Shown in pieces: positions 5,721 through 64,000 of a stretch of DNA of 64,000 nt (its first letter is position 1; each line of letters opens with the position of its first letter). Below the pieces are notes generated by a model. That model did not search any database, had not been told where the DNA came from, and saw nothing but the letters and a program-made list of their open reading frames with translations. Source of the stretch: a virus; IMG/VR virus record IMGVR_UViG_3300027801_002517, positions 32,001-96,000 of that record; one strand, given 5' to 3'. A program made the translations under genes and the position numbers.

Positions 5721-5734
5721 TTAGGATTAATATT

Positions 5735-9517: not shown

Positions 9518-9537
9518 ATTAATAAATAACATTTTCC

Positions 9538-9556
9538 GTGTATAATACAATATAAT
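9538..9556 (+). promoter_or_regulatory. Putative late promoter, GTGTATAATA plus a second TATAAT
   Basis: GTGTATAATA at 9538-9547 and TATAAT at 9551-9556 in the intergenic gap, then AGGAG SD. The identical 10-mer occurs at 60547-60556 (-). Confidence 0.6.
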
Positions 9557-9579
9557 GACCTTCTTTTAGGAGAATTTAA

Positions 9580-10320
9580 ATGGCAGCTATTACATTTCAT
9601 ATAAATAACTTTGAAGCGGCAGCAAATCAGACTACTGAAGCTACATTGATTCGACATGACCTTGGTTCAGGTCTTGGTTTCTATGGTGGTGGATTTGGTA
9701 TTTCCGTGCCTGTTGCTGGCTATCAAGATACAACTTTCGTCACCAGTGCTGATGGTACTACTCAGGCGGTTCAGACGCAGAATACAAAATATGTTTCAGA
9801 AAGTGGCTTATCTTTCAATAGTGCTGGTTCTGCTGGTACATCTGGTATTCCTAACTTTAAAGCACCACTCAATATTAGATTTACTCATGATTCTGCTGTT
9901 AGTGTTCAGAATTGTAAATTGAGAATTTTTGATAGAAGTGATATTGGAACTCATGCTACTGAGGTTACTACTAAAGCTTATGAATTGAGACATCCTAATC
10001 CTCTTGATGGACATAGTGCTGATAAAGGACATTTAGCACATCGTGGTTCAGCTAATCACGGCTGGACAGAATATGACCCTACAGAAGGTGGCACTCCACC
10101 CGATTTGACTTTAACAGCATCTCCTGGTACAAGTGGATTAAATACTACAGCGGGTGATGTACTACCTACAGGTGATGGGTCTTATTTCAATCATCTGACT
10201 AAAGAAGGTGCAGCCCACCAAGCTACAAGGCACGATTGGTATTTAGCATTATCTGCTTCTCCAACTACCATTGGTAGTAAAACAAACTATGGATTATACT
10301 TCACTTTAGAGTATATTTAA
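9580..10320 (+). CDS. Putative virion structural protein
   Basis: 246 aa, Gly/Ala/Thr/Ser-rich, strong SD, own promoter and terminator. Confidence 0.55.
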   Translation: MAAITFHINNFEAAANQTTEATLIRHDLGSGLGFYGGGFGISVPVAGYQDTTFVTSADGTTQAVQTQNTKYVSESGLSFNSAGSAGTSGIPNFKAPLNIRFTHDSAVSVQNCKLRIFDRSDIGTHATEVTTKAYELRHPNPLDGHSADKGHLAHRGSANHGWTEYDPTEGGTPPDLTLTASPGTSGLNTTAGDVLPTGDGSYFNHLTKEGAAHQATRHDWYLALSASPTTIGSKTNYGLYFTLEYI

Positions 10321-10359
10321 GCCGTCACCATTATTTCTTATTATTCGACGGTCATTATT

Positions 10360-10392
10360 AAACCCCCGCCCATGAGGACGGGGGTTTTTTAT
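10360..10392. terminator. Intrinsic terminator at the convergent strand switch, probably bidirectional
   Basis: AAACCCCCG-c-CC-atga-GG-a-CGGGGGTTTTTT hairpin with T tract between convergent genes. Confidence 0.85.
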
Positions 10393-10397
10393 TTGGT

Positions 10398-10733
10398 CTA
10401 TTCGTTCTTCTCAGTCTTTGGATTCCACTTGGTCCATCCACCATCAGGTAGCCAGTTACCCTCAACATCTTTACGACGTGGGAACAATCCACCACCCTTC
10501 TTGTGGGAACCAAATGCAAGTTTAGCACCACAATCCATACAACGAACTTCGTAATATAGGTTGTCGTCCACATTCCTCACTACAAATCGTACATTCTCTG
10601 ATCCGCATTTGCCACACTTGGTTTCTTCAAAAACCTCCTGAAACTTAGATAGATCTTCGAATACATTCTTTGCAGAATCACCTTCTAATTCTACTGTTAA
10701 TCTACCATTTCCCGTTGTGTAATTTACTCTCAT
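10398..10733 (-). CDS. Hypothetical protein with zinc ribbon
   Basis: CGKC...CMDC motifs. Confidence 0.6.
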   Translation of the reverse strand: MRVNYTTGNGRLTVELEGDSAKNVFEDLSKFQEVFEETKCGKCGSENVRFVVRNVDDNLYYEVRCMDCGAKLAFGSHKKGGGLFPRRKDVEGNWLPDGGWTKWNPKTEKNE

Positions 10734-11501
10734 TTAATTTCTCCAGTCACTGTTATAGCCAATAATAGACTTAGGGATTGACGATGCATCACGTTGGAAG
10801 GAATTTAACTTTTCGATAGCCGCACTGGCTTGTTTCTTAGTTACTTTTCTACTCACAGATACACTAAACACTTCTTTAAATAAATTGCTTGCATTAATGT
10901 CTAATTGCTTACATTTTACATTAATATGATTACTTTGTGGATCAGTCATTCTTGACGAATCTTGATATTCACCAGCGGTTGGTTCCTCAACCGTTTTTCC
11001 ACGACTAATACTACGTACTACTTGTGCAGTATCTTTCTTGGTTACCTCTTCAGCAGCCACAGCACGTAGTCTGAGAGCCTTCCTCAAAGCTCTGGCTTCT
11101 GCACGGGTTCCAGCCGTAGCGACTGAGAAGGCACAAAATGTATCGTCTGTGTTGCCCTCCCAGCAATCTGCTACATCACCAAAAGATTGTCCGTTCATAA
11201 ACTCGATTTTCCATACTACAGTAGCACGTCCATGAGAATGGTCATCTTTAGGTGGGAACACCTGTACAGGTCCACTACTTCTTACTGGTCCTAAAATTAA
11301 CTCTGCTACTCGTCGTAAGCCAGCAGATAATGGCATACCATCGATTAGCTCGTTAGATTCGAACAAACTGATCACATAATCATTCCATTCTGGAGATGTT
11401 ATATGTGGTGCATCTTCCAATACAATGTCCGTTACAGATGTATCAGTATTCATTGGTGAATCTAATGTAACACTATCAAATAAATCTCTTTCCTCATTCA
11501 T
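10734..11501 (-). CDS. Putative Rad52/Sak-like single-strand annealing protein
   Basis: ATAGTRAEARALRKAL helix after a beta-hairpin core, and a C-terminal MTDPQ...KKQASAAIEKL domain typical of phage SSAP tails. Confidence 0.5.
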   Translation of the reverse strand: MNEERDLFDSVTLDSPMNTDTSVTDIVLEDAPHITSPEWNDYVISLFESNELIDGMPLSAGLRRVAELILGPVRSSGPVQVFPPKDDHSHGRATVVWKIEFMNGQSFGDVADCWEGNTDDTFCAFSVATAGTRAEARALRKALRLRAVAAEEVTKKDTAQVVRSISRGKTVEEPTAGEYQDSSRMTDPQSNHINVKCKQLDINASNLFKEVFSVSVSRKVTKKQASAAIEKLNSFQRDASSIPKSIIGYNSDWRN

Positions 11502-12265
11502 AATTCAACCTCAATAAAGCGTTTAGATTTAGACGGAAAACTTTCCTTAATAGACTCTAAATGTTCAATAATATTATCAAGCAGTTTTTTAGTTCTACTT
11601 AACGATGCAGCATTTAATGCCTTAACTCTTATAACAACAAATCCTCTTGATAGCAATGTTCCATTTTTCTTTAGATCAAACTTTTCTTGTTTTCTTAAAT
11701 GATCATCTCCCCATATTGGTAAAAAATGTGATGGACCGTCTACCTCTATTATAGTCTTCAAATCAGGAATGTACATATCTATTTCTAATTTTTCCATAGG
11801 AATTAAATTTTCGTTATGGAAGTCTACTGAGTATCCTGCTGAAGATAATCCCTTCAAAATTTCTTTTTCAAGCTTTGACCCTTCTTTAGCTGTCCTACGA
11901 ATTGCATTAATGCCAGATGAGATCATTTTTTGTTTGTCTTCTTCTGATCTGGATTCCCATCTTTTTCGGGCTTCTTCTGCTCTTCTCTGTTTGACATCTA
12001 CATCCATATCATCCCAATAACCCTCCATGCTACTGCTGATTTTTAATTTTTCAGCTTCGGTTCTAATTTTCCCCTTTGTTGGGTGTGTAGACGTACCCTT
12101 TTCCAAAGAAACCTTTTGAGCTTCACTGGCATTTCTGGTTTCAATACCATTTTTTATTAATGTCCTTCGGATTTTATTGGGGTATGTCTGTAGCTTTTTT
12201 GCTATTTCGTGTGTACTGTGACCATCTTCATACATAGTGATGATTTTATTATCTATTTTGCTCAT
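11498..12265 (-). CDS. HTH + NUMOD3-like + Vsr/DUF559-type endonuclease (homing-endonuclease-like)
   Basis: STHEIAKKLQTYPNKIRR HTH; KGKIRTEAEKLKIS NUMOD3-like; EIDMYIP..IIEVDGPSH nuclease motif. Confidence 0.7.
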   Translation of the reverse strand: MSKIDNKIITMYEDGHSTHEIAKKLQTYPNKIRRTLIKNGIETRNASEAQKVSLEKGTSTHPTKGKIRTEAEKLKISSSMEGYWDDMDVDVKQRRAEEARKRWESRSEEDKQKMISSGINAIRRTAKEGSKLEKEILKGLSSAGYSVDFHNENLIPMEKLEIDMYIPDLKTIIEVDGPSHFLPIWGDDHLRKQEKFDLKKNGTLLSRGFVVIRVKALNAASLSRTKKLLDNIIEHLESIKESFPSKSKRFIEVEL

Positions 12266-12708
12266 GTTAACACCTCTAATAATTCTATAGCATCAATGTG
12301 CTCAAATTGGTGTACTGGTTTCTTACCAGTAATTCTGTAAAATTCCTTTGAATCCTCTTCGTCTTCGGTAATAACGTCTATAGTATTTGAAACTTCTAAA
12401 ACTTTTAGTATATCTTTATCATCCCATCTATTGTAGATATGGAAGAGTTTAAATTTGTTCACAATTTTATTGGCACTAAATGCATTATTCAGTGATGTTG
12501 TGAACAATGTTCCCGTGAAGTTCCACATATCCGCAGCGTTAAACATCCCAAAAGCTGGAATTAGAGGATTGTAATCAATATCATTATAGAACAGACTAGC
12601 ATCCTTTATTTTTCTACGTCGAATACTGCTATTGAGAGTTTTGAAAATATCTATGTTGCGATTTTCCGTATTTACTTTGTCTATATAAAAACCAATATTC
12701 TTAAGCAT
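12262..12708 (-). CDS. Hypothetical protein, possible glycosyltransferase-like fragment
   Basis: 148 aa ORF coupled to fcl. Confidence 0.45.
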   Translation of the reverse strand: MLKNIGFYIDKVNTENRNIDIFKTLNSSIRRRKIKDASLFYNDIDYNPLIPAFGMFNAADMWNFTGTLFTTSLNNAFSANKIVNKFKLFHIYNRWDDKDILKVLEVSNTIDVITEDEEDSKEFYRITGKKPVHQFEHIDAIELLEVLT

Positions 12709-13630
12709 TCTTATTCTCCATATACCAATTAATTGTTGTTTGTAAACCTTCTTTGAGTTCTACCTGAGCTTCGAATCCCAATCGTTCTTTAGCACGAGAT
12801 GTATCTAAACATCGACGCGGTTGACCGTCTGGCTTGGATGGGTCATAAATAATATCTCCTTTATATCCCATAATATTTGTAATCTCTTTTACAAGATCCT
12901 TGATTTTAATTTCCTTGCCAGTACCAATATTAATAGGCTCTGGACTTAAGTTATCACTATTGATGGCCTTGACAATTGCTTGTCCACAATCTTCAACAAA
13001 TAAGAATTCACGAGAAGCTTCACCAGTTCCCCATAAAGTAATTGATGGATCACCATTTTCTATTGCTTGATGAACTTTCAAGATAAGTGCGGGAATTACG
13101 TGACTAGAAGTCAGATTGAAATGGTCGTGAGGTCCGTACATATTTACTGGAATTAAATTAACACCATTAAAATCGTATTGCTCATGATATGCTTCCACCA
13201 GTCTCATAAGAGTCTTTTTGGCAATACCATAAGGTGCATTAGTTTCTTCTGGATAACCATTCCATAAATCTTCTTCCTTAAAAGGTACAGGTGTGAATTT
13301 GGGATATGCACAAACTGTTCCAAGTAAAATAAACTTAGGGACTTTTGCTTTCATCGCTGAATGAATTATGTTTGTACCCATGATTAGATTGTCATACATA
13401 AACTTTCCGGGATTTTCCTGATTTGCACCAATACCTCCCACACTTCCAGCAGTATGTATAATGACATCTGGAACACTTCTACTGATAACAGTATCAGTGC
13501 ATCTACATTTACGTAAATCATAAGGCTTACTGCCTATTGACCTAACTTGGCTACTGCCAAATGTTTCTTGTAAAATTTTGGTCAGGTTTGTTCCCAAAAA
13601 TCCCGTACCACCTGTTAGTAATATTCTCAC
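12701..13630 (-). CDS. fcl: GDP-L-fucose synthase / GDP-colitose synthase (Fcl/ColC family)
   Basis: TGGTGFLG, VGGIGAN, LGTVCAYPK, YGIAK, SHVIPAL, WGTG..SREFL, KPDGQPRR. Confidence 0.9.
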   Translation of the reverse strand: MRILLTGGTGFLGTNLTKILQETFGSSQVRSIGSKPYDLRKCRCTDTVISRSVPDVIIHTAGSVGGIGANQENPGKFMYDNLIMGTNIIHSAMKAKVPKFILLGTVCAYPKFTPVPFKEEDLWNGYPEETNAPYGIAKKTLMRLVEAYHEQYDFNGVNLIPVNMYGPHDHFNLTSSHVIPALILKVHQAIENGDPSITLWGTGEASREFLFVEDCGQAIVKAINSDNLSPEPINIGTGKEIKIKDLVKEITNIMGYKGDIIYDPSKPDGQPRRCLDTSRAKERLGFEAQVELKEGLQTTINWYMENKNA

Positions 13631-13653
13631 TAGTAATAATCTCCTCTAAAATA

Positions 13654-14358
13654 TTATAATCCCTTTGCTAACCAACCACCATCAACGTATATATCTTGTC
13701 CTGTTATATAGGAAGATGCGTCGGATGCAAGAAAAACAAAAGTACCAACCAGATCCTTGGGTGTTCCCCATCTATTTAGCATTGTTTTTTGAGATCTCTG
13801 CTTGTATGTTTTTTCGTCTTGCCAACTATTCTTTGTCATCTCTGTAATAAAGTATCCAGGTCCAACATTATTAACTCGAATACCATATTTACCTAAATCT
13901 AGTGCGGCTGATTTCGTTAGCTGCTTTAAAGCACCTTTAAATGCAACATAAGCAGGATTGTTTGGAAAGGCCAGTTCTGCATTTAGACTAGTGACATTAA
14001 TAATTGATCCTCCACCAGCACTTTGCATTTTAGGAGTAATGTATTGTATTAATTTATATGGAGCTTTTAAATTTACTTCATATGTTTGATTCCAAAATTT
14101 ATCAGGATAGTCCACGAAATCTGAAACATGTGTGACTCCTGCATTGTTAACTAAAATATCAATTGTATCAAATTTATCAAGATGTGTTTTCACTTGATCG
14201 TGATTTGTTATATCACACAGAATTGTATCATCACTTTCAATGATATCCAACCCGATAACATTAGCACCAAATTCTCTTAATCCATCTGCAATAGCTTTGC
14301 CGTTTCCTCTAGCGGCACCAGTGACAATAGCCACTTTATGTTCCAATGAAAATATCAT
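13654..14358 (-). CDS. SDR-family oxidoreductase
   Basis: TGAARGNG, NNAG, YVAFK, DGG. Confidence 0.9.
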   Translation of the reverse strand: MIFSLEHKVAIVTGAARGNGKAIADGLREFGANVIGLDIIESDDTILCDITNHDQVKTHLDKFDTIDILVNNAGVTHVSDFVDYPDKFWNQTYEVNLKAPYKLIQYITPKMQSAGGGSIINVTSLNAELAFPNNPAYVAFKGALKQLTKSAALDLGKYGIRVNNVGPGYFITEMTKNSWQDEKTYKQRSQKTMLNRWGTPKDLVGTFVFLASDASSYITGQDIYVDGGWLAKGL

Positions 14359-14786
14359 AGTTCTTCTACCAATTCGATTAGAGTTCCATCTGGGTCTTTA
14401 CAAAATGTAAGCATAACAGGAAAATCTGGAGATTTTTGTGGTTCGCATATAACAGTTACGTCATTTTCTAATAGCTTGTCATATAATTCCGAAAGGTTTT
14501 CTACAGTAACTGCGAAATGAGAACAACCAATATAGGTTATATCCTTATTTAATGTAATGACACCCTCGTGAGATTTATAATGTAATAACTCTACAAGCCC
14601 TCCATCATTATCTGTCATTTTAACAGTCCTGACATTCACTCCTTTTAGCCCAGAAAAGTTATCGATGTGCTGTCCAGACTCATCTGCTTCTACTATAATA
14701 GAGAATCCTAAAATGTTTGTATAAAAATGAATAGATTTTTCCAAATCTCCAACAGTTATTCCCACATGTCTAAATTTAACACTCAT
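14355..14786 (-). CDS. VOC/glyoxalase-family protein
   Basis: HVGITVGDLEKSIHFY, VELL, HFAVTV, DPDGTLIELVE. Confidence 0.9.
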   Translation of the reverse strand: MSVKFRHVGITVGDLEKSIHFYTNILGFSIIVEADESGQHIDNFSGLKGVNVRTVKMTDNDGGLVELLHYKSHEGVITLNKDITYIGCSHFAVTVENLSELYDKLLENDVTVICEPQKSPDFPVMLTFCKDPDGTLIELVEEL

Positions 14787-15493
14787 TTATTTTTCCTCGC
14801 AATTGAAAACAACATCGGTTCTTTTGAGAATCTAACTAATACATTAAACCAATGTGAAACTTCTAGTGGTGTGTCGTAATTTGGTTTGTATGGTATAGGC
14901 AACTTTCGGAATAATTTTATCAAAGGTTTCAGATAAGGGTATTTCCATAAAAAGGGTAACTGAAAAAAGTGTTCCACATAAATGTCTTCAAATCCTGCTA
15001 ATAACAGTGCTTCAGCAAGTGATTGTTTAGTCCAAGGTGTTACATGGGTATGATCACAATAGAATGGTCCCCAGTACGTATATTCCCATGCAGGTGTCAT
15101 CATTACAGCAGTGCCTCCTGGTTTTAAAGCCTCATAGGTCGCATTCATCAATCCCATAGGATTTTTCATATGTTCAATTACTGATTTAGTAAAAATCAAA
15201 TCATATTGCCCAGCATATTCTGGAGGTAAACTTTCAGATTCCAAATCAATTATTAAACTTTTGTGACCTTCAACCATATGAGTCATTAAATCAAATCCTG
15301 TGACATCAAATCCCATATCAGAGAAAACGTCTAAATATTCTCCTCTACCACATCCTAAGTCTAAAAACTTACCAGATGTCTTGCCTGTTCTTTTTACTAA
15401 TTCCTTTCCAAGTGCATATGGATATTGTGTTTTAGGAGTTTTTTTATCGGAATAAGTGATATCTAAATATTTTTCATTATTCATTATACTCAT
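14783..15493 (-). CDS. Class I SAM-dependent methyltransferase
   Basis: FLDLGCGRG, KSVIEH, LKPGG, DHTH. Confidence 0.9.
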   Translation of the reverse strand: MSIMNNEKYLDITYSDKKTPKTQYPYALGKELVKRTGKTSGKFLDLGCGRGEYLDVFSDMGFDVTGFDLMTHMVEGHKSLIIDLESESLPPEYAGQYDLIFTKSVIEHMKNPMGLMNATYEALKPGGTAVMMTPAWEYTYWGPFYCDHTHVTPWTKQSLAEALLLAGFEDIYVEHFFQLPFLWKYPYLKPLIKLFRKLPIPYKPNYDTPLEVSHWFNVLVRFSKEPMLFSIARKNK

Positions 15494-16743
15494 TGTAGCA
15501 CTCCTTCCAAGACATCAAATGCCTCATTTATTGCTTCTACTGTTATAGTGAGAGGTGGTCCTAGCTTGATAGATTTACTCCAAGTATTGACTGGAAATAT
15601 ACCATTGTTGAAACAAAACTCAACCACTTCATCTGCTGTTTGTTTATCTTTAAAGATTATACCTGCAACCATTCCTTTAACATTTACATAAGAAATGGAA
15701 TCATATTTTTCTAATGTTCTCAGTCTGTCTTCAAATACTTCCACTCTTTTAGACAAGTCTTCTTGAAATTGTTTGCTTGTTAAGTAGTTTAAATTAGCTA
15801 ATCCTGCTGCACAACACAAAGCATTGCCTGCATGAGTACTACTCAAGTTAGTATCGACATCAATAATTTCTTTAGTAGATAGAACAGCAGACATTGGCAA
15901 TGAAGAAGTTATAGCTTTACCCAAACAAATAATATCTGGTTCATAGTCACCATATGTCATATATCCGTACAGTTTTCCCATTCTATAAAATCCAGATTGA
16001 ATTTCATCAAAGCAAACCAATGCACCATTATCTCTAGCAAATTTGTATAAATTTTGCAGGTATGATTGTGGATACATTTGTGCGGTTGGTCCTTGATATG
16101 TTTCAATAAAGAATGCGGCAATTTGTTCTGGTGGTGGTAATAAACTTGCATCGAATGCCTCGTCTTTATCGTATGGAAAATCAATAAATATAATATCGTC
16201 ATCAACAAGATTGGACCACTTAGTGCTATCCTTGTTGCCACAGATTAGATCAGAGCCAACAGTCCTACCATGATAACTACCATTGAAACTGACAATATAT
16301 TTTTTGTCATTCTTTTTAGCCCATATCTTTATTAACCTATAGGCAGCATCAGTGGCTTCACTACCTGAATTTAATAGAACAACTTTTTCAAAATGGTCAG
16401 GCGAACAATCTAAAAGTTTTTCTGCAAATTGTTTTCTAATATGCGTATAGTACTGATATGAGTATACTAAATCATCATCCAATTGTTTCTTAATTGCATT
16501 ATTTATTTCAGAATTAGAGTGTCCTGCATTAGATACAAAAATACCCGAAGAAAAATCTATCCATTTGTTTCCATCTTCGTCAAAAATAGAAAAGTCTTTT
16601 GCTCTATTCCACCAGATAGGAGATTGAGGATTTATAGAAGTAGATTCATAGTTATACCTTATACTATCTCGTTCCTCATTATAAAGTTTAAAGTCATTTC
16701 TAATAATTCGATGTTTAGTTTCTATCAGATTTACACTCGGCAT
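15490..16743 (-). CDS. Class III PLP-dependent aminotransferase
   Basis: WIDFSSG, NSGSEA, SYHGRT, FDEIQSGFYRMG, LGKAIT, STHAGN. Confidence 0.9.
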   Translation of the reverse strand: MPSVNLIETKHRIIRNDFKLYNEERDSIRYNYESTSINPQSPIWWNRAKDFSIFDEDGNKWIDFSSGIFVSNAGHSNSEINNAIKKQLDDDLVYSYQYYTHIRKQFAEKLLDCSPDHFEKVVLLNSGSEATDAAYRLIKIWAKKNDKKYIVSFNGSYHGRTVGSDLICGNKDSTKWSNLVDDDIIFIDFPYDKDEAFDASLLPPPEQIAAFFIETYQGPTAQMYPQSYLQNLYKFARDNGALVCFDEIQSGFYRMGKLYGYMTYGDYEPDIICLGKAITSSLPMSAVLSTKEIIDVDTNLSSTHAGNALCCAAGLANLNYLTSKQFQEDLSKRVEVFEDRLRTLEKYDSISYVNVKGMVAGIIFKDKQTADEVVEFCFNNGIFPVNTWSKSIKLGPPLTITVEAINEAFDVLEGVLQ

Positions 16744-17459
16744 TTATTTAAGCTTTCTAGCAAAACATTTTCTTGGATTTCCAACTGATGAGTTAATAAA
16801 TCAAATTCATACTGGGCATCGACTTCAGTAATAAATTCTGATTCATATGGAAGGATTTTGGTTGAAAAGGCAGAATTGCCAGACTCTATAGTTTCCCTTT
16901 TAGTAATATCTAAATAACCATTAGGTTGATATGCTTTAGGAAATTTTTGTCTTGGTAAATTTGTATAATCTTTTATACCATCAAAATCCTCAAAGAATCC
17001 TTCGCAATATCCTTCTTCACCTAATTTAAAAACCTTATAGGGAGATTCTGGTAATTCATGCATTGACCTCAATGCACTCATTCGGTGCCTGTTATCAAAA
17101 TAAAACTCTATACAATTGTCTATGTTCTCTGGATTCCGCAAAGGCGTTGTTGGTCTGACATATGCAACATCATTAACATCGTATAACTGAAAAAAGTGAT
17201 TAATAACTTGCCAATCTGATGAGTTATCCTGAGCATATTCTTCTGGTCTCTTTAAAATCTCTGCCCCATAAGATTTGGCAACCTCTGCAATTTCATCGTC
17301 TTCTGTTGAGACAACAATTTTATCAATTAAAGAACTCATCTTACATGCTGTAATACTATAAGATATGAGAGGATGTCCTTGTAATAGTTTAATGTTTTTT
17401 CTTGGAACACCTTTACTACCACCTCTAGCGGGAATCAATGCAATCAATTTTTTAGACAT
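16731..17459 (-). CDS. neuA: Acylneuraminate cytidylyltransferase (CMP-nonulosonate synthetase)
   Basis: IPARGGSKGVPRKN, VSTEDDEI, RPTTPLR, RQ...NG. Confidence 0.9.
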   Translation of the reverse strand: MSKKLIALIPARGGSKGVPRKNIKLLQGHPLISYSITACKMSSLIDKIVVSTEDDEIAEVAKSYGAEILKRPEEYAQDNSSDWQVINHFFQLYDVNDVAYVRPTTPLRNPENIDNCIEFYFDNRHRMSALRSMHELPESPYKVFKLGEEGYCEGFFEDFDGIKDYTNLPRQKFPKAYQPNGYLDITKRETIESGNSAFSTKILPYESEFITEVDAQYEFDLLTHQLEIQENVLLESLNKCRV

Positions 17460-18273
17460 TTACTGTTTTCCTTAATTTCTTTGCGATTGGGATCTCTGAA
17501 TCATACACTACCTTCTTACCATCACCCAACATCAATTCAATTTTACGAATTGCCTTACATAGTGCGTCAGCATTCTCGATAGAAGCAGCTTGATCGGAAC
17601 CATAGTCTGCTCTATCGTGTGTAATATGGAACTCTATACATTCTGCACCTATTGCAGTTGCGGCAACACATGCGTCGTGACCATTATAGTGGTTGGAAAA
17701 TCCAACCTTACATGACGGATGTTGTTGCTTTAGAGTTTTAATGTGAAGAAGATTTAATTCTTCTGCTTTGGTAGGGTAGGTACTAGTACAAGCAAGAATA
17801 AATTCTATGTTATCTAAAATAGACATAGCAATATTTATTTCTTCCTCTGTACACATCCCAACCGATAAAATAATAGGCTTTCCTGTTTCGTTTAGCTTGT
17901 TCAAAAAATTAGTGTTTGTTACAAGTGCAGATGCCACTTTGTGATATTTCACATCAAGGCATTGTACATCATCTATACTTTTCACATCCCAACAGGAAAC
18001 AATAAAATCTAATCCCATATCTTCAGAATACTGTTTAAGACCTTTATATTGTTCAATAGAAAATTCTAATCCTTCTTTTTGATCTCTATTAGTATCTCCC
18101 CAAGGTGACTCTCTTGGTGTATCTAATTCTTCTTTAGTATAAACACTTTCAATATCTCTCTTTTGAAATTTTACAGCATCCGCCCCTGCTTGATATGCTT
18201 GTTTAATTAATCGTTTGGCCAGTTTAATACTTCCATTATGATTAATTCCAATTTCCGCAATGATATAAGTCAT
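17452..18273 (-). CDS. neuB: N-acetylneuraminate/nonulosonate synthase, short form without SAF domain
   Basis: IIAEIGINHNG, AVKFQKR, STYP, GFSNH, IEFHIT, GSDQAAS. Start moved to the SD-preceded MTYII at 18273. Confidence 0.9.
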   Translation of the reverse strand: MTYIIAEIGINHNGSIKLAKRLIKQAYQAGADAVKFQKRDIESVYTKEELDTPRESPWGDTNRDQKEGLEFSIEQYKGLKQYSEDMGLDFIVSCWDVKSIDDVQCLDVKYHKVASALVTNTNFLNKLNETGKPIILSVGMCTEEEINIAMSILDNIEFILACTSTYPTKAEELNLLHIKTLKQQHPSCKVGFSNHYNGHDACVAATAIGAECIEFHITHDRADYGSDQAASIENADALCKAIRKIELMLGDGKKVVYDSEIPIAKKLRKTVNV

Positions 18274-18295
18274 AACATTTCCTATTGTTTTTGGT

Positions 18296-18943
18296 TTATA
18301 AGACATAATTTGATTTTCCGCCATCGAAATTAATGGTTACACCCGTGAGATATTTAATGTCTTTATCTACAATAGAAGATATAAAATCACCTATTTCTTT
18401 TGTTGTACCAACTCGTTTAACTGGTATTCTATCCTCAAGTTTAGGAATATCCTTACACAAAGTTTTCAATCTATCTGTGTATATTGGACCCGGTGCAATG
18501 TTGATACAAGTAATTCCTCTATCACCTAAAATTTTGCTCAAGCATTTAAAAACACTAACAAATGCAATTCGGTACGCATTTGACAACATAAGTTTAGTAT
18601 CTGGCTCTTTAATGTTGTATGATGTTATCAGAAAAATATATCCGTTATCGTTTATTTGTGCCTCTTGGATAATTTTCAAAAACCCATAGAACAGTTGATT
18701 ATGGTATAAATCACAATCTTCTTTAGTAATTTCATGAAATGGTTTGGAGGGTGGACCACCAGTATTTAATACTAAAATGTCTATAGGATCTTGATCATTT
18801 AGAAAAGATTCTATTTGTTCTATATTAGATGTATTCAATTCTTTAGAAGAAGTTGCTTTAACATCACAACCTATAGATACTAAAGAATCTGTAATTCCTT
18901 TTCCTATGCCTCTACTACCAGCAGTAACTAATGCTTTTTTCAT
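18296..18943 (-). CDS. SDR-family oxidoreductase (atypical active site)
   Basis: TAGSRGIG, LNTGGPP, SNAYR in place of YxxxK, FDGG. Confidence 0.85.
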   Translation of the reverse strand: MKKALVTAGSRGIGKGITDSLVSIGCDVKATSSKELNTSNIEQIESFLNDQDPIDILVLNTGGPPSKPFHEITKEDCDLYHNQLFYGFLKIIQEAQINDNGYIFLITSYNIKEPDTKLMLSNAYRIAFVSVFKCLSKILGDRGITCINIAPGPIYTDRLKTLCKDIPKLEDRIPVKRVGTTKEIGDFISSIVDKDIKYLTGVTINFDGGKSNYVL

Positions 18944-19656
18944 TTTAAAACTCCATTGCCACAGGCACTCTTACATATGTTTATATTTTCAATTAGTTCC
19001 TCGACAGTATCTATACCTACTGCCCAAATATTATCTGGAAACTCTACATCTGAATTATCATCTTTAACATAAAAAAGCATATCGGTTGGATCGTAACAAG
19101 ACGCTAAAAGTAAATTGATTGGATTGTCACAATGACTGCCATATCCTACATGGTCCCAGTAATTTCTAAGAGTTTTTATAATAGATAAATTTGTTTCTTC
19201 TAATTCTACAGAATCTCGATTTGTATATATTAGCCTAATATCACCCTCAATATCAGATAACAACTCAGATAATTCTAATATATCTTTTTCAGAACACAAA
19301 CCCACGGAAACCAGAATGGGTTTTTTAGTTTTTGCTAATGTAGTAATGAGATTCTTATTAAAGACTCCATCTCGTATTACTTTATAAAAGTCTACCTGAA
19401 GTTCTTCAAAAAAATCAATTAGCTCTTCGTTTGTGATAGCAACACCAAAAAGTTTCCCTTCACTCTTAGTCATTCCATATAAATCATCATAATGACTCCA
19501 ATCAAAATATAGATGTGATTTTCGTTGTCTATGATCTTCTTCTCTGATTTGAAATGTCAATCCATCCAGCCCTTCAACAGAACATAAATTCCTGACATAC
19601 TTTTTTGCCAATTCATAGTCACCTAAATGATTTTGTCCAATCTCTGCAATTATCAT
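18940..19656 (-). CDS. Second, divergent NeuB-family synthase
   Basis: MIIAEIGQNHLG, KPILVSVG, GYGSH, PD; several NeuB motifs diverged (TFQ for KFQ, no EKH). Confidence 0.75.
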   Translation of the reverse strand: MIIAEIGQNHLGDYELAKKYVRNLCSVEGLDGLTFQIREEDHRQRKSHLYFDWSHYDDLYGMTKSEGKLFGVAITNEELIDFFEELQVDFYKVIRDGVFNKNLITTLAKTKKPILVSVGLCSEKDILELSELLSDIEGDIRLIYTNRDSVELEETNLSIIKTLRNYWDHVGYGSHCDNPINLLLASCYDPTDMLFYVKDDNSDVEFPDNIWAVGIDTVEELIENINICKSACGNGVLK

Positions 19657-19670
19657 AATACATTTCCTTA

Positions 19671-20375
19671 TTAATTATTAAGTATTAATTCTTTTAATCG
19701 CTCATCAACTGTTAGTATGTCGTCTCTTTCCAAAAGATTTTTAAAAGCAAAAATTTGTTTTTTAATTGCCATATCACCATGTGTTCCTCCAGTTGGTGGA
19801 GGAGGTCCATCTAAAGGATTGTAAAAACCATCGGCATATGCTTTATCTGTTTGGTAAAAGTCAAATCCAGTGACGTATAGCTCTGCAACTGGACACTCTA
19901 TCAACATAAGAACACTCAAAGTGCCAGTATATGGCTGACAACCTATCATATTATATATCTCTTGATATTTTTTTACACCTATCCACTCAAAGGGAATATC
20001 GTTTGTATTAATGGATTCTGCATTATGAACAACATCACCAATATGATCTTCAGCCCAAGACATATAATTATCTTCTTTGATTCTCGTACCATATATCAAA
20101 GGACATACTAACATTTTAAGAGCATCAAAATCTTCTTTATAATTTTCAATGTTATCCTTCAGTCCGGGAATCCAATCAGTTCCAAAGTTATGAAACAATA
20201 TATCAGTTCTTGACCCATAATCATTGTTCAGTTCATCATTTGTCCAAAAGTGATTTGGTCTACATACTACATCAAATGAATCAATAAGCTCCCCATCATT
20301 ACTACCTTTAAGACCAGTCGATGGACCTACAATTACTACTCTTTTATCGCCTACAAAATTACATAACACAGACAT
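19671..20375 (-). CDS. GT29-like sialyltransferase
   Basis: L-sialylmotif-like RVVIVGPSTGLKGSNDGELIDSFDVVCRPN; S-motif-like PYTGTLSVLML...LYVTGFDFY; VS-like His (THG). Confidence 0.75.
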   Translation of the reverse strand: MSVLCNFVGDKRVVIVGPSTGLKGSNDGELIDSFDVVCRPNHFWTNDELNNDYGSRTDILFHNFGTDWIPGLKDNIENYKEDFDALKMLVCPLIYGTRIKEDNYMSWAEDHIGDVVHNAESINTNDIPFEWIGVKKYQEIYNMIGCQPYTGTLSVLMLIECPVAELYVTGFDFYQTDKAYADGFYNPLDGPPPPTGGTHGDMAIKKQIFAFKNLLERDDILTVDERLKELILNN

Positions 20376-20378
20376 GTT

Positions 20379-21116
20379 TTAGTTTCCTTGGTAGATGGGA
20401 ATTGGAATCATCTTGTGTTTGTTTTGATTGTGTAGTCTGTTGTAGATTTCTGTAACTTCCTTCTGTCTATCTGTCAATTCAGACACACCATCATATTCCA
20501 TAACCCATTCCAGTTCCTCATAGGTGGCACCAATTTGATCTTCATCTGTCCTACCATCATCCCACAAACCATCAGTCGGAGAAGCAACCAGAATCTCTTC
20601 ACATACACCAAGTTGTTTTGCCATTTCACGAACATCTGTCTTAGTAAGATTAGCAATCGGTGAAATGTCAACTCCTCCATCGCCATACTTTGTGAAGAAT
20701 CCAACGCCAAAGTCTTCTACTTTATTTCCTGTCCCGACTACAATACCATTATGTACTTGTGCAATTTGATACAACGTAGTCATACGAAGTCTTGCCCTAC
20801 TATTTGCTAATGCAAGGTCGTCACATTCAATCGCATCTAAACCAGAGATGAAAACATCATACATAGCAGAAAGATTGATATCTCTATGAGACACATTCGG
20901 ATGGCTATCTTTTAACCATTCAATATGGTTCAACCCACGAAGATGCTGATCAGGTGCTTGATGAATAGGCATAGTGAGTAGAATTGTGTCGATATCGGTT
21001 AAAGCACAAATCTTTGAAGTAAGAGCGGAGTCAATTCCTCCTGATACTCCAACAACTAAACTCTTGATGCCATACTGATCACAATATTGCTTAATCCATT
21101 CAGAAATCTTATTCAT
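20379..21116 (-). CDS. nadE: NH3-dependent NAD+ synthetase
   Basis: VGVSGGIDSA, ANSRARLRM, GTGNKVE, FFTKYGDGGVD, PTDGLW..TDEDQIG. Confidence 0.92.
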   Translation of the reverse strand: MNKISEWIKQYCDQYGIKSLVVGVSGGIDSALTSKICALTDIDTILLTMPIHQAPDQHLRGLNHIEWLKDSHPNVSHRDINLSAMYDVFISGLDAIECDDLALANSRARLRMTTLYQIAQVHNGIVVGTGNKVEDFGVGFFTKYGDGGVDISPIANLTKTDVREMAKQLGVCEEILVASPTDGLWDDGRTDEDQIGATYEELEWVMEYDGVSELTDRQKEVTEIYNRLHNQNKHKMIPIPIYQGN

Positions 21117-22360
21117 CTTGCAGTGTCTCCAACAGAAATTAGTTCAACACCATCTTGTTCTGACATCATTCTCCACGGATCAATTACAACTGATCCTTCA
21201 GGAAACTTATAATCAAGGAACTTGTCATGATTTGTTCCAATAAAGAATACGGCTTTCTCATTGAGTGGTGGTTTACCAGCATCAACCCACGGATCATACA
21301 TCTCAGCATCAACATCATGTTCCTTCATCATATTCTTCATTAGAACTGATGGACTTCCTACAGTTAGATTTGTTTCTTTTTTGAAACACTTACCAAGAAT
21401 AATAGGCTTCAGTCCAGTTTCCTTCGACTTAGCAATTAGCATATTTCCCAACCATTCGGTTTGTTTTTCTCGACAAACCATCATACTATCATACCAGTCA
21501 TAACTGAGATCAAGTTCTTGAGCCATCCACGACAGTGCGATATTGTCTCTTGGATGACAACCGCCACCGTCTCCCATCCCACCTAAAAGATACTTAGTGC
21601 TAATAAGTCTATCACTAGCAAGGAACATACCTCTCATAACATTGTCGCAGTTAACATTATCGAGTTTATGTGCTGCTTCCATGATAACATTAGCAAGATT
21701 AATCTTCATAGTAATGTAAGTATTATAAGAGACCTTGATCATTTCCGCTTCTTCAATGGAGCACTCATACACTGGTCTGTCGTGTATGGTTGCATAGAAA
21801 CTTTTAACTGTTTCTACGGCTTCTTTATCGTCAACACCCAAAAGAACAAACTCTGGCTCAGTAAAGTCCTTAATCGTAGTTCCCATTGCAATAAAGAATG
21901 GATTATAACACAGCTTAATATGCTCACTTAATAGAGGCTTAATTTCCTTTCGGACTGTGCCAGGCAGAACCGTTGAGATGATAACGACAATTTTGTCCTC
22001 ACCGTTTCTATCGATTGCCTCTGACAAAGTTTTTAATCCTGACTTCAACCATGCATAGTTAAAGTTTACTCTTTCTTCGGGAAGTCGAGTTGTTCCTTCG
22101 TAACGAGGTTCGTGAGGAGTCTGAATAGGAACAAAGATAATATCACTTTTTTCAACAACGTCATCTACATTAGTGAAGTTAATATTATGATTTTGTAAGC
22201 GTTCCGGAGCACCCTCTTCTCGATATGGCAGTTGCTTTGTATCGAGAATAGTTTTAACACCATCATTAACGTCATAACCATATACAGTATGTCCTTGCTC
22301 GTCAATAGCTAAAGCACAAGGTAGTCCTAATTTTCCCAGTCCAATAAAACCTATGTTCAT
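21113..22360 (-). CDS. ugd: UDP-glucose/GDP-mannose dehydrogenase family
   Basis: GLGKLG, VPIQTP, STVLPG, NPFF, EMIKVSYN, GGGCHPRD. Confidence 0.88.
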   Translation of the reverse strand: MNIGFIGLGKLGLPCALAIDEQGHTVYGYDVNDGVKTILDTKQLPYREEGAPERLQNHNINFTNVDDVVEKSDIIFVPIQTPHEPRYEGTTRLPEERVNFNYAWLKSGLKTLSEAIDRNGEDKIVVIISTVLPGTVRKEIKPLLSEHIKLCYNPFFIAMGTTIKDFTEPEFVLLGVDDKEAVETVKSFYATIHDRPVYECSIEEAEMIKVSYNTYITMKINLANVIMEAAHKLDNVNCDNVMRGMFLASDRLISTKYLLGGMGDGGGCHPRDNIALSWMAQELDLSYDWYDSMMVCREKQTEWLGNMLIAKSKETGLKPIILGKCFKKETNLTVGSPSVLMKNMMKEHDVDAEMYDPWVDAGKPPLNEKAVFFIGTNHDKFLDYKFPEGSVVIDPWRMMSEQDGVELISVGDTAR

Positions 22361-23112
22361 TACATAATTCCTTTCACTTTAACTGCATCTTCGTACCTAA
22401 GATTGCGATATTTTGGTTGATCAAATTCTGGTCGAGAAACTTGAAACATCTCTGTTCTTTCATTCCATGTTTCACGATCTACTTCTTCTGTATCCATTGA
22501 TCCTGTATAGTCCGGGTTGTCCGGTCTATCATGAAAAATTACGATTCGATTTTCTACCCTTTCAATACCTAGCATAGCACCAACCTCTGAGACCCATGTA
22601 TCATTATGGGCCTGAAGAGAGAAGTGTCCAGTGACTTCATACATTTTTCTGGATATAATTGGAAATGTGTTGATGTCTTTTGCGTCGTCATTTCCTGTCG
22701 ATGGATTTAAAACGACAATATCATTTTGATATTCGGCCAGAATGTCATCCCAGCCGCTTTCAGCCATTGTAGTATCATCATTAAACAAAAATAACATATC
22801 CCCTCTAGAAACATCACAACACTCATTAACATACTTGTTTAGATCGATATATCCTCTAAAACGCTCACCTATTATAACGTAAATGTCCACTTTATCGAAA
22901 GGTAATTCTGTGATCCTAGAGATACTATCAACATCATCAGAATCAAATCTAATTATGATTTCAGCTCGACTTGCATCAGTGGCTGTTTCTGCAATCGAGC
23001 TACAAGTATTAAGGAGATTACTAAACCTTTTACGAGACGGAACTAAAAAAGAAACCAGTTTAGCTTTCCCTCTTTTTAAAATTCTACGTTCATTATCGTC
23101 AATGACTGACAT
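22360..23112 (-). CDS. GT2/GT-A glycosyltransferase
   Basis: VSFLVPSRKR, FDSDD, LFNDD. Confidence 0.75.
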   Translation of the reverse strand: MSVIDDNERRILKRGKAKLVSFLVPSRKRFSNLLNTCSSIAETATDASRAEIIIRFDSDDVDSISRITELPFDKVDIYVIIGERFRGYIDLNKYVNECCDVSRGDMLFLFNDDTTMAESGWDDILAEYQNDIVVLNPSTGNDDAKDINTFPIISRKMYEVTGHFSLQAHNDTWVSEVGAMLGIERVENRIVIFHDRPDNPDYTGSMDTEEVDRETWNERTEMFQVSRPEFDQPKYRNLRYEDAVKVKGIM

Positions 23113-23132
23113 TTAAATTCTCCTAAATTATA

Positions 23133-24272
23133 TCAATTAAATTTGTTAACTATTGATGAGACCATCTTGATCTCTGATTCTGTTAAATTGTGATTATTGG
23201 GTAGATAAAATCCATAATCGCTAACGGTATCTGCATTTGGTAAACGTACTTCTCCGTACCTCTTAATCCAAAACGGTTGTCGTCCAAGAGACCCACATAT
23301 AAGTGGTCTTGTTTCTATGTCATTTTTTATAAGCTCACTAACTATTTCAGATCTATTCTGACTTATTACTGGGTAGGCAAAATTTGAAATAAACTTACTA
23401 TCGGTAGACTTTGGGGGATTCCAAAATGGGTTATCTATTAACTCCCTATATAGGTTATAATTATTATTTCGTATTCTGACAATTTCATCAGAGGTCTTCA
23501 GTTGATTAATACCCAAGAAAGCCTGGAGGTCAGTAGACCTGAAGTTAAATCCCATATAGTGAAACCTATATAAAGCATCAAATGTGTCTTCTTTATCTAT
23601 ACGAAACTCTGGATCAACATCTCTTTCCCAGCCATGACTCCTAATAGCCTTCAGTATATTATAAAGATGGGAATCATTAGTTGAAATAATACCACCTTCT
23701 ATAGTTGATAAGTGATGTCCGAAGTATGTGGAGAAACATGACATTTCTCCTGTAGTACCTAATTTTCGACCTCCATAAGATGAACCAAAAGACTCACAAG
23801 CATCTTCTAGTAATGTAATGTTGTATTTTTTACATGTATTAACAATGAGATCCATTTCAGGAACAAGACCAAGTACAGATACTAATATAGCACATTTTAT
23901 ATTATGTGTCAATGCCAATTGTTCAAAATAAGATAAGTCTAATGATAGATCTTTCATATTGCAGTCACACAATATAGGAGTTAGTCCAAGTTGCACAACT
24001 GGAGCTAGATCAGTAGCCCATGAAACAGCAGGTACAATTACTGAGTCACCTTTATTAAGAGTGCCTTTTTCCAACAATGCTTGCAACATCATCATTACAG
24101 CAGAAGATCCAGAATTTACTGATACACAATGTTTATTGCCTAAGTAATTCGACCATCCTTCTTCGTAATCAACTGTTAAACGACCTTGAGTCAACTTAGG
24201 ATGTGTACGTAGCCAATCCGCTAAAGTATCCATTTCTTCATTATTTATTGTATCTCTAACCAATGGTATCAT
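23133..24272 (-). CDS. colD: GDP-4-keto-6-deoxymannose 3-dehydratase (ColD-type DegT family)
   Basis: VNSGSSA, LEDACES, STYFGHHLSTIEGG with His at the Schiff-base Lys position, SHGW. Confidence 0.8.
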   Translation of the reverse strand: MIPLVRDTINNEEMDTLADWLRTHPKLTQGRLTVDYEEGWSNYLGNKHCVSVNSGSSAVMMMLQALLEKGTLNKGDSVIVPAVSWATDLAPVVQLGLTPILCDCNMKDLSLDLSYFEQLALTHNIKCAILVSVLGLVPEMDLIVNTCKKYNITLLEDACESFGSSYGGRKLGTTGEMSCFSTYFGHHLSTIEGGIISTNDSHLYNILKAIRSHGWERDVDPEFRIDKEDTFDALYRFHYMGFNFRSTDLQAFLGINQLKTSDEIVRIRNNNYNLYRELIDNPFWNPPKSTDSKFISNFAYPVISQNRSEIVSELIKNDIETRPLICGSLGRQPFWIKRYGEVRLPNADTVSDYGFYLPNNHNLTESEIKMVSSIVNKFN

Positions 24273-24274
24273 TT

Positions 24275-25369
24275 TCAGCCTTCTATGAAATATTCGTTAA
24301 TCGTATGAATAATATAAGTCTGTTCTTCGTCTGTCAAGCAATATGCTGATGGAAGAGATATACCCATATCAAAAGCCTTATTACTCACTGGCAAATTCTT
24401 ATCAGCAAAATTCATATGTTTATAACACGGCTGCTGGTTTAGTGGATAAAAGAACTCCCTTGTTTGAATGCCTCTTTTTAAAAGATGATTCATTAGTTCT
24501 GACTTTTTAGATGTCAAAAATGATGTAAACCACCAAACAGGACTACAAAAATCATTCACTGTTATTTTAGTTAAACTGTTGTCAAGCTCATTGTTGTACC
24601 TATCATAAATATGTTTTTTCTTAGTCTTTATTCTATCAAGTTTATTCATCTGAGCAATACCAATGGCGGCTTGCATCTCAGTAAAAGCAAAATTATAACC
24701 TATAGCATCATGCTTGAATCGACCTTTGACTAATCTTCCGTGATTCTTTAGTTGGTAAACCTTATTGCGTATTTTTGTAGAATCAGTTAATACAATTCCG
24801 CCTTCGCCACATGTGATAGTTTTGTTTCCGTAAAAAGAAAGTATACCACATTCTCCAAAGGTTCCAACATGACGACCTTTCCATTTTACTCCCACGCCCT
24901 GTGCCGCATCTTCAATTACAGCAAGGTTATTTTCTTCAGCAATTTTAGTAATAGCATCCATATCACAGGACTGACCATATAAATGAACGGGCATAATAGC
25001 CTTAGTTCTATGGCTGATTAATTCCTCTATTAACGAGGTGTCAATACAAAGATTTTCAGGACTAATGTCACATAGAACTGGTGTTGCACCAGCCAACAAG
25101 ACAGCATTCGAAGATGCTATAAATGTCATATCTGGAACAATAACCTCGTCACCCGGACCTATACTAAGTGCCTTTAAGCAACAATATAATGACATTGTCC
25201 CATTAGTTATAGCAATAGCATATTTAGCTCCAGTAAGATCTCGAATCATCTGTTCGAATTCTTCAGTTAGATTATGTTCTGTAACATAAGTACTGTCAAT
25301 CACCCTAGTAAGCTGTTCTAGCTCTTCACCATCTATCCAAGGCTCAATCTGCGGTATAAAGTCCCTCAT
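24275..25369 (-). CDS. per: GDP-perosamine synthase-like DegT/DnrJ aminotransferase
   Basis: NGT, VHLYG, EDAAQ, SFYGNKTITCGEGG. Confidence 0.75.
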   Translation of the reverse strand: MRDFIPQIEPWIDGEELEQLTRVIDSTYVTEHNLTEEFEQMIRDLTGAKYAIAITNGTMSLYCCLKALSIGPGDEVIVPDMTFIASSNAVLLAGATPVLCDISPENLCIDTSLIEELISHRTKAIMPVHLYGQSCDMDAITKIAEENNLAVIEDAAQGVGVKWKGRHVGTFGECGILSFYGNKTITCGEGGIVLTDSTKIRNKVYQLKNHGRLVKGRFKHDAIGYNFAFTEMQAAIGIAQMNKLDRIKTKKKHIYDRYNNELDNSLTKITVNDFCSPVWWFTSFLTSKKSELMNHLLKRGIQTREFFYPLNQQPCYKHMNFADKNLPVSNKAFDMGISLPSAYCLTDEEQTYIIHTINEYFIEG

Positions 25370-25727
25370 AAGACTTTTGTTCCTTTACTACTGATTTAGA
25401 AATATTGTTTATTTCATTTTTAATAAGAAATCTATTATCATTAAGTATAGCATCTAAGCGAGCATGTTTAATAAACTCATCACCAAAAGTTTCATTGTCC
25501 TCCATATCCCTAATGATATCTTCAGTATCCCAAAGCTCTGTATTTATTTGCAACAATTTATCATAAAGTTCTGTAGGAACATCGTGATCCTGCATATTAG
25601 ATTTTAGAATTTTTAGTTCTTGGTTGATATAATACAATTTTGTTTCATCTGTGATGTGATCTCTTTTTATCTCAAGTATTGTAACCTTGTCAACAAGCTC
25701 ACCTACTGATACTTCAATTTTTGGCAT
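25344..25727 (-). CDS. DUF6165-like protein
   Basis: EVSVGELVDKVTILEIK...LW..ED..R...ND.R..IK..IN...EQKSY. Confidence 0.7.
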   Translation of the reverse strand: MPKIEVSVGELVDKVTILEIKRDHITDETKLYYINQELKILKSNMQDHDVPTELYDKLLQINTELWDTEDIIRDMEDNETFGDEFIKHARLDAILNDNRFLIKNEINNISKSVVKEQKSYEGLYTAD

Positions 25728-28755: not shown

Positions 28756-28764
28756 AATAGTTCC

Positions 28765-31896: not shown

Positions 31897-32275
31897 TAAT
31901 TTGAGTAGTTATAACTTTTAAATCAAGTTGGGATATCATATCTGCAGTTTGTGTTACATCTGACATAGACTTACAATTTGCAACTACTTCGGATGCATCT
32001 TCAAGGGAAATAAGGTTATTAATAACACTCGTATTAAACATTCTTAAATCAACACCTCCAATTACTATTTTACCACCTATTCTTATCTTTTTTCTTAAAC
32101 TTGATAGACAAACGGTAATATTCCTATATTCAAATTGATTGAGGATTTTACTTGCCAATATAAATTCACATTCATTATCTGACATATCAGCAAAATCAAT
32201 CCCTTGATCTTTCACTAAAATTTTTCTATATCCTTCTAATGCCTCTTCAGATTCTGATACGATATTAATTTTCAT
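31862..32275 (-). CDS. Degenerate methyltransferase-like protein
   Basis: DNECEFILA...KKIRIGGKIVI; lacks the GxG motif. Confidence 0.45.
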   Translation of the reverse strand: MKINIVSESEEALEGYRKILVKDQGIDFADMSDNECEFILASKILNQFEYRNITVCLSSLRKKIRIGGKIVIGGVDLRMFNTSVINNLISLEDASEVVANCKSMSDVTQTADMISQLDLKVITTQINGIYYEITAER

Positions 32276-63998: not shown

Positions 63999-64000
63999 TT

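Follow-up and report, generated by a model that had tools for sequence, protein, structure and literature searches.

Sialic-acid-like sugars govern recognition at cell surfaces. Here we describe a cluster of five genes that may serve to make and transfer such a sugar in a 64,000-nucleotide (nt) stretch of DNA from an uncultured marine phage (the window; bases 32001–96000 of the 157,369 bp IMG/VR virus record IMGVR_UViG_3300027801_002517), one of which encodes P0001, a small sialyltransferase-like protein. The closest described counterparts of P0001 are the mammalian GT29 sialyltransferases, the GT42 enzymes CstII and Cst-I of Campylobacter jejuni, and the 23 predicted bacterial GT29-like sequences of Petit et al. 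(2018), which are mostly alpha-proteobacterial, include none from a phage, come mostly from marine bacteria and are recognised, like P0001, by the GT29 hidden Markov model (HMM) and by sialylmotifs (PMC5811610). For the genes beside it, the nearest parallels are the legionaminic acid (Leg) and pseudaminic acid (Pse) pathways (LegB/C/H/G/I/F and PseB/C/H/G/I/F) and the EpaA/EpaB enzymes of Acinetobacter baumannii prophages, in which a phage-borne CTP_transf_3 protein and a short-chain dehydrogenase (SDR) act on a nonulosonic acid (PMC12053666). In the literature we found no description of a phage GT29 enzyme or of nonulosonate synthesis by a phage; UniProt automatically labels as GT29 some proteins of uncultured Caudovirales and of a mimivirid.

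We consider it fairly likely that the five genes form one co-translated, fully cytoplasmic unit for making, activating and transferring a nonulosonic sugar, set inside a 26-kb phage operon. All five lie on the minus strand, exactly where the initial annotation had placed them:

16731–17459, minus strand: putative cytidine monophosphate (CMP)-ulosonate synthetase, or cytidylyltransferase (P0183); CTP_transf_3, 82.8 bits
17452–18324, minus strand: NeuB1 (P0040), a nonulosonate synthase without an SAF domain; Pfam NeuB, 214 bits
18296–18943, minus strand: SDR-B (P0182), an atypical short-chain dehydrogenase; adh_short_C2, 76.4 bits
18940–19656, minus strand: NeuB2 (P0039), a divergent NeuB-fold TIM barrel; Pfam NeuB, 52.3 bits
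19671–20375, minus strand: P0001, a GT29/GT42-fold glycosyltransferase of 234 residues; Pfam PF00777, 30.9 bits

The five genes and their neighbours overlap by 4–29 nt or are separated by gaps of 3–14 nt, and they are therefore almost certainly co-translated. They belong to an unbroken run of minus-strand open reading frames (ORFs) at about 10.4–36.1 kb, the glycan operon, which encodes sugar-nucleotide enzymes and glycosyltransferases (GT2, GT4 and GT47-like besides P0001) and whose first gene (34402–36102) overlaps ssb (36099–36410) by 4 nt. The IMG/VR record, rated 94% complete by CheckV, is that of a phage, and the phage-type replication and nucleotide genes in the window encode a split Pol III alpha, DnaG, DnaB, a UvsX-like recombinase and ribonucleotide reductase. 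A scan of positions 9500–26000 for consensus promoters and terminators gave nothing above shuffled expectation, and a DNA search with the module against phages matched only nadE and one NeuB. In the order of steps that we infer, NeuB1 would join phosphoenolpyruvate to a hexose derivative to yield a 3-deoxy-2-ulosonic acid, the CTP_transf_3 enzyme would convert this acid to a CMP-sugar, and the soluble GT29/GT42-fold enzyme would add the sugar residue terminally to a glycan that the GT2, GT4 and GT47-like enzymes of the operon assemble. NeuB2 and SDR-B may be an accessory pair for sugar tailoring or for an alternative step.

The evidence for the last of these steps begins with the fold. The AlphaFold2 (AF2) model of P0001 (pLDDT 93.3) is a single globular domain from residue 1 and has no hydrophobic or membrane segment, in agreement with the earlier description of a GT29-like protein lacking a membrane anchor. 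On this model, P0001 is predicted to adopt the modified GT-A (variant 2) fold of GT29 and GT42 sialyltransferases, as had been proposed for the product of 19671–20375. The 14 best structural matches are all GT29 chains, led by ST6Gal1 (VIA Z 14.3, root-mean-square deviation (rmsd) 3.1 Å over 192 residues), and the mammalian GT29 enzymes ST6Gal1, ST3Gal1, ST8Sia3 and ST6GalNAc2 together span Z 12.7–14.3 and rmsd 2.7–3.6 Å over 176–197 residues. GT42 structures follow at Z 9.8–11.6 (Cst-I 11.6, CstII 11.3), then an MptE-type pyrophosphokinase and SteA at 9.3–9.8, with unrelated folds below 6.2; Foldseek likewise matched the sialyltransferase fold with an E-value of 1e-6.

The sequence is less partial to GT29. 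P0001 scores 30.9 bits with Pfam Glyco_transf_29 (PF00777) against a cut-off of 23, the match being confined to residues 12–63, the L motif; the same model is matched by all 33 aligned family members (best E 4.7e-15). In a single-sequence search the best PDB match is GT42 CstII (E 7e-4, residues 11–181), whereas the family profile scores ST3Gal-I (41 bits) and CstII (38 bits) about equally. The Pfam GT42 model CST-I (PF06002) does not match P0001 at E-values up to 1 and touches one of the 33 relatives (E 2.6e-4). Of the L-, S- and VS-like sialylmotifs in the initial annotation, the L motif is clear, P0001 residues 12–63 corresponding to Pfam positions 56–106, and the S motif is supported by the profile search, in which PYTG...LYVTGF aligns with the S motif of ST3Gal-I; on the pig enzyme the profile covers residues 92–245, a span that includes the L motif as well as PSTG...LY from the S motif (E 1.7e-9). 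The VS motif is tentative: alignments to GT29 chains end before it, a conserved His lies in the loop that precedes the last helix, and His199, kept in the close clade, is offset by three residues from the column of the CstII catalytic His. The cysteines of the L–S disulphide were not found, the 33-sequence alignment holding no invariant or near-invariant Cys and showing Lys or Arg at the L-motif Cys position.

P0001 resembles CstII and Cst-I in being soluble, in its modified GT-A fold and in the alignment of the DFYQ...Y region with its two tyrosines and of the RxN motif: GFDFYQTDKAYA of P0001 aligns with GIDFYQNGSSYA of CstII, and Asn41, Tyr174 and Tyr180 align with CstII residues that we take to have active-site roles, including a phosphate-binding Tyr pair. 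It differs from them in failing the CST-I model, in its lower structural score (Z 11.6 versus 14.3 for GT29) and in having no C-terminal membrane-association region. The mammalian GT29 enzymes are its best structural matches, and their L and S motifs align with it; P0001 is 14–20% identical to them, is about 50–90 residues shorter than their crystallised catalytic domains, has no signal anchor, stem or L–S disulphide cysteines, and would act in the cytoplasm rather than the Golgi lumen. The label 'eukaryote-type' therefore cannot be kept: the sequence is as near to GT42 CstII as to GT29, the GT29 disulphide is missing, and the family is a very large one of prokaryotes and viruses. P0001 belongs to the GT29/GT42 fold superfamily and is assigned by Pfam to GT29. 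Its gene is not derived from a eukaryote: the great majority of the family is prokaryotic or viral, and a eukaryotic origin was rejected for that reason.

A profile search returned 7,221 clusters at 50% identity in the P0001 family, 674 of them at E 1e-30 or better. Relatives are encoded by at least 269 IMG/VR loci and by 47 bacterial genome loci from Bacteroidota, Planctomycetota, Verrucomicrobiota, Lentisphaerota and others. Against the 23 sequences of Petit et al. (2018), the family seen here runs to some 7,200 clusters; phages often carry it, cytidylyltransferase genes are linked to it, and it occurs in the four named bacterial groups. Among deposited phage records (50,697), tblastn with P0001 found no match and tblastn with NeuB1 found only 3, so that isolated phages supplied no annotated relative.

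Linkage to the activating enzyme was examined in homologue contexts drawn from IMG/VR and GTDB loci. Of 80 IMG/VR loci, 47 have a cytidylyltransferase homologue no more than 10 kb from the GT29-like gene, often as its direct neighbour, as do 23 of the 47 bacterial loci; this is indirect support for a CMP-ulosonate donor. The order GT29-like gene, cytidylyltransferase, NeuB1 recurs in phage contigs L005 and L010–L012, with variants in L002 and L008, and a GT29-like gene is found within 6 kb in 11 of 41 viral loci anchored on NeuB1. Synthase, cytidylyltransferase and transferase, which had been noted as a cluster in this one phage, are thus a conserved linked module. The conservation extends downstream, the order NeuB1, cytidylyltransferase, class-III aminotransferase, methyltransferase, VOC being kept in L002 and a VOC gene following NeuB1 in L005 and L010–L012. 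Many relatives of the P0001 domain (P0184–P0221) are fusions of 500–1200 residues that combine tandem GT29-like domains, GT2, Glyco_transf_7C (galactosyltransferase-type) or a CmcI-type sugar O-methyltransferase, domain compositions that would fit a role in glycan assembly. To our knowledge, CMP activates only 3-deoxy-2-ulosonic acids. Cumulatively, the linkage, the gene order, the fusions and this restriction of CMP to ulosonates make a CMP-ulosonate transferase the best reading of P0001.

The two NeuB-like proteins were assessed by HMM scores and by residue checks, using the list of NeuB catalytic residues in PMC8208679. NeuB1 matches the whole of the Pfam NeuB model (PF03102, positions 1–241), scores higher with TIGR03569 (234.6 bits; cut-off 399.65) than with the PseI model TIGR03586 (162.1 bits; cut-off 340.25), and keeps the AEIG, KFQ, KVAS, CTSTYP, SNH and EFH motifs. 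NeuB proteins without an SAF domain are a known environmental group (PMC8208679), and the clade of NeuB1 is represented in marine data by more than 8000 matches of about 275 residues that are about 70% identical. The cytidylyltransferase P0183 belongs to CTP_transf_3 (PF02348); its best NCBIfam model is PseF (TIGR03584, 115.7 bits against a cut-off of 205.7), while models for KdsB give 30–51 bits against cut-offs of 155–281. It carries the IPARGGSKGVPRKN motif (N-terminal CTP-binding; PARxGSKG...KN), and the phage record has no second CTP_transf_3 gene. Of the 'two NeuB' in the initial annotation, therefore, NeuB1 has the canonical catalytic set of motifs; NeuB2, treated below, keeps the fold alone.

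As to the sugar, the initial annotation had recognised no precursor genes in the window. This holds for NeuC/LegG (PF02350) and PseB (PF02719), neither of which, nor KdsA (PF00793), was found in the whole 157-kb record, an absence that is likely rather than certain at 94% completeness; the standard routes to N-acetylneuraminic acid (Neu5Ac), Pse and Kdo are therefore probably not encoded. It does not hold for a LegC/PseC-like gene, the first of three features with a possible bearing on the precursor and its tailoring:

24275–25369, minus strand: LegC/PseC-like sugar aminotransferase, a candidate precursor enzyme; DegT, 369.6 bits
23133–24272, minus strand: second DegT-family enzyme, RfbH/PseC-like; DegT, 227 bits, with RfbH (200.9) and PseC (189.8) below their cut-offs
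12701–16743, minus strand: downstream tailoring block of, from high to low coordinates, a class-III aminotransferase, a methyltransferase, a VOC/glyoxalase protein, SDR-A and an Fcl-like epimerase/reductase; Pfam and NCBIfam

The LegC/PseC-like enzyme, about 4 kb upstream, scores 301.3 bits with the LegC-family model and 274.8 bits with PseC, both below cut-off, and its homologues adjoin NeuB1 in L003, L004 and L006. The Fcl-like gene occupies 12701–13630, and a Gmd-like GDP-mannose 4,6-dehydratase (TIGR01472, 378.7 bits against a cut-off of 415) is encoded outside the window at record positions 126386–127492 on the plus strand, that is, about 74 kb from the glycan operon and on the opposite strand. 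In the viral loci that encode close relatives of NeuB1 (34), the synthase gene is accompanied by an SDR in 24, by CTP_transf_3 in 22, by a xylose-isomerase-like TIM barrel and by a GDP-mannose-dehydratase-type (4,6-dehydratase) enzyme in 18 each, by DegT in 17, by a class-III aminotransferase in 13, and by VOC and cupin proteins in 12 each. This neighbour pattern hints at a 6-deoxy-amino-hexose precursor with subsequent tailoring, nearer to Leg/Pse chemistry than to KDN. Neu5Ac is an improbable product. A GDP-6-deoxyhexose route would more probably lead to an amino/deoxy nonulosonate of the legionaminic/pseudaminic class or to a related sugar that is so far undescribed. The TIM barrel and SDR genes recur together beside close NeuB1 relatives in L003 (14357–17944) and in clusters of L134–L167, L003 adding a phosphofructokinase-family protein.

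Compared with the Leg and Pse pathways, the phage has the core of synthase and cytidylyltransferase, a DegT aminotransferase and, elsewhere in its genome, a 4,6-dehydratase. Unlike them, it has no hydrolysing 2-epimerase, UDP-sugar hydrolase, N-acetyltransferase or PseB, all its scores are below equivalog cut-offs, and it possesses in addition the class-III aminotransferase, methyltransferase, VOC protein and NeuB2/SDR-B pair. The EpaA/EpaB enzymes share the phage-borne CTP_transf_3 and SDR genes, yet they only epimerise a sugar made by the host, include neither synthase nor transferase, and belong to temperate phages of a pathogen rather than to a large marine phage (PMC12053666).

Where the sugar would be attached is the point on which the strongest competing explanation turns. 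No 19-residue hydrophobic window typical of a membrane helix occurs in the 33 consecutive operon proteins (10398–36410, minus strand), two hydrophobic matches of sub-threshold appearance lying inside soluble folds, and no flippase, polymerase, ligase or initiating phosphoglycosyltransferase was seen in the 26-kb operon. We therefore place glycan assembly in the cytoplasm, and decoration of phage proteins is plausible. That the glycan shields the virion or alters host binding, as the initial annotation proposed, is a hypothesis. The same chemistry could instead be directed at a host surface glycan (lipopolysaccharide, capsule, S-layer or flagellin glycan) on host carriers, where it would block superinfection or mask receptors and leave the phage's own particle untouched. 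The co-directionality of the operon with replication genes and its 4 nt overlap with ssb, which suggest early or middle expression, speak for this explanation, as do the chromosomal polysaccharide-type loci in which the bacterial homologues sit and the precedent for host-glycan remodelling set by the EpaA/EpaB prophage enzymes (PMC12053666). However, with the export and initiation functions and any membrane protein missing from the operon, the phage would depend fully on host export, and giving up about one sixth of a lytic-type genome would be costly if exclusion were the only benefit; on balance we regard a host acceptor as possible but somewhat unlikely. Two very large plus-strand ORFs at 861–9517 (1619 and 1260 residues, no PHROG match) converge on the 3' end of the operon and are candidate fibre or surface proteins, possibly glycan acceptors.

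A second alternative concerns NeuB2 and SDR-B, which could be catalytically dead partners, serving as scaffold or regulatory subunits of NeuB1. NeuB2 matches Pfam NeuB over model positions 44–239, and its AF2 model (pLDDT 91.9) finds PseI (8h2c) in Foldseek at E 4e-15 with TMq 0.85, values of 0.83–0.88 being obtained against PseI, NeuB and SpsE. The canonical ligands (K53, S132, N184/Y186, E234 and H236) and the CxSxYP motif are not present in NeuB2, where T, R, a different loop and LFYVK replace the ligands, so that half of the metal site is missing, and SDR-B, which has TGxxxGIG, carries Phe in place of the YxxxK lysine four residues after Tyr124, as do its homologues in L002 and L008. These losses are what inactive subunits would show. 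On the other hand, both families are strongly conserved around invariant motifs of their own: in the small NeuB2 family (22 matches), 19 members of 37–81% identity share 29 invariant columns and keep TFQ, FYKVIRD, GYGSHC and LFYVK in place of KFQ, KxAS, CxSxYP and ExH. Moreover, to judge from PDB titles, metal-independent forms exist among the related KDO8P synthases, and the frequency of a TIM barrel beside NeuB1 in related loci (18/34), usually with an SDR (24/34), suggests a real enzymatic step. NeuB2 and SDR-B travel together in L002 and L008, and in the clade of the window the pair occupies the site that the TIM-barrel/SDR pair holds in most relatives, a position that hints at an equivalent step. 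We therefore find it doubtful that the two proteins are inactive.

Several observations weigh against a nonulosonate make-activate-transfer unit as such. NeuB1 has Leu at the position of E134 in NmNeuB (Neisseria meningitidis), and it ends after the linker, so that the C-terminal SAF domain, and hence Arg314, is missing; both NeuB1 and the cytidylyltransferase fall below every NCBIfam equivalog cut-off. With such scores and residues, homology does not reveal the substrate of NeuB1. Neither an enzyme to free the hexose from its nucleotide (the role of NeuC, LegG or PseG) nor an N-acetyltransferase was found, and in the literature we found no biochemical assay of any member of the P0001 family. 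Finally, many loci of the family have a cytidylyltransferase and no NeuB, and His199 of P0001 precedes by three residues the alignment column of the CstII catalytic His. The last two points would be expected if P0001 were no nonulosonate transferase at all, using another donor such as CMP-Kdo or being a non-glycosyltransferase of the MptE/DUF115 fold, and the MptE-type pyrophosphokinase and SteA do share its fold (Z 9.3–9.8). Nevertheless, the GT29/GT42 sialyltransferases (Z 11–14) clearly outscore both, every aligned member passes the Pfam GT29 model, relatives are fused to other glycosyltransferase domains, NeuB1 is encoded about 1.3 kb downstream of P0001, with NeuB2 and SDR-B between them, and the phage has no KdsA. 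We thus consider a different activity of P0001 improbable, and take the loci without NeuB to indicate that the family at large may use other CMP-ulosonates, for example Kdo.

That the glycan machinery modifies phage DNA as a glycosylated base, and not protein- or lipid-linked glycans, is very improbable and was rejected. A dNMP kinase gene is present (41374–42123, minus strand), and glycosylation of hydroxylated cytosines has been described in phages (PMC13326640), but a search of the whole record found no ThyA-type (PF00303) hydroxylase/hydroxymethylase homologue, only ThyX (about 63411–64000, minus strand), and no known DNA modification system comes near to some ten transferases together with a CMP-ulosonate route.

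If the five genes do form a nonulosonate unit, P0001 would give a prokaryotic and viral family of about 7,200 clusters its first characterised enzyme, and, being small, soluble and free of disulphides, it could ease enzymology on prokaryotic GT29-like enzymes. With a phage that makes, activates and transfers such a sugar, abundant marine phages would join giant viruses and a few mycobacteriophages among the viruses that encode glycosylation, and, because the NeuB1 clade is extremely common in ocean metagenomes, identifying its product would put a name to a widespread marine sugar. P0001 and its family would also be relevant to the proposal that eukaryotic sialyltransferases arose in bacteria (PMC5811610). 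A more far-reaching scheme, which we offer tentatively and think unlikely to hold in full, is that large marine phages cap a glycan of their own virion proteins with an undescribed nonulosonate that the SAF-less NeuB makes, a neofunctionalised NeuB-fold/SDR pair helps to produce and the soluble cytoplasmic GT29-like enzyme attaches, the family perhaps having been the source pool of the eukaryotic sialyltransferases.

The remaining features concern the surroundings of the module. Directly upstream of the transferase gene lies the following pair:

20379–22360, minus strand: NadE-like protein and NDP-sugar 6-dehydrogenase; TIGR00552, 179.3 bits, and NDP-sugDHase, 193.1 bits, each exceeding its cut-off

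The NadE cut-off is 64 bits, and the order of the two genes is kept in the related contig L001 at 71–81% identity. NadE chemistry is the amidation of a carboxylate via an adenylate, and beside a sugar dehydrogenase a uronamide-forming role is conceivable; the gene may equally be one for NAD supply, as in cyanophages and pelagiphage HTVC008M. Next to this pair, 22360–23112 (minus strand) encodes a protein of 250 residues that has no Pfam or NCBIfam match and is 54–75% identical to counterparts in L001 and L002; a protein-language-model search led to phage clusters partly with GT2 (score 0.99), which we treat as a lead only. Six consecutive minus-strand ORFs of 137–289 residues at 28072–32275, between recognisable glycosyltransferases, have no Pfam match and are possibly unrecognised transferases or tailoring enzymes; the product of one of them (28072–28755) is kept beside the GT47-like gene in related phages. 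Beyond the operon, on the minus strand, Pol III alpha is split into an ORF with the PHP and NTPase parts (38691–40328) and one with the finger/HhH part (36457–38058), and an RNase_T-type exonuclease ORF (38018–38698) lies between the two.

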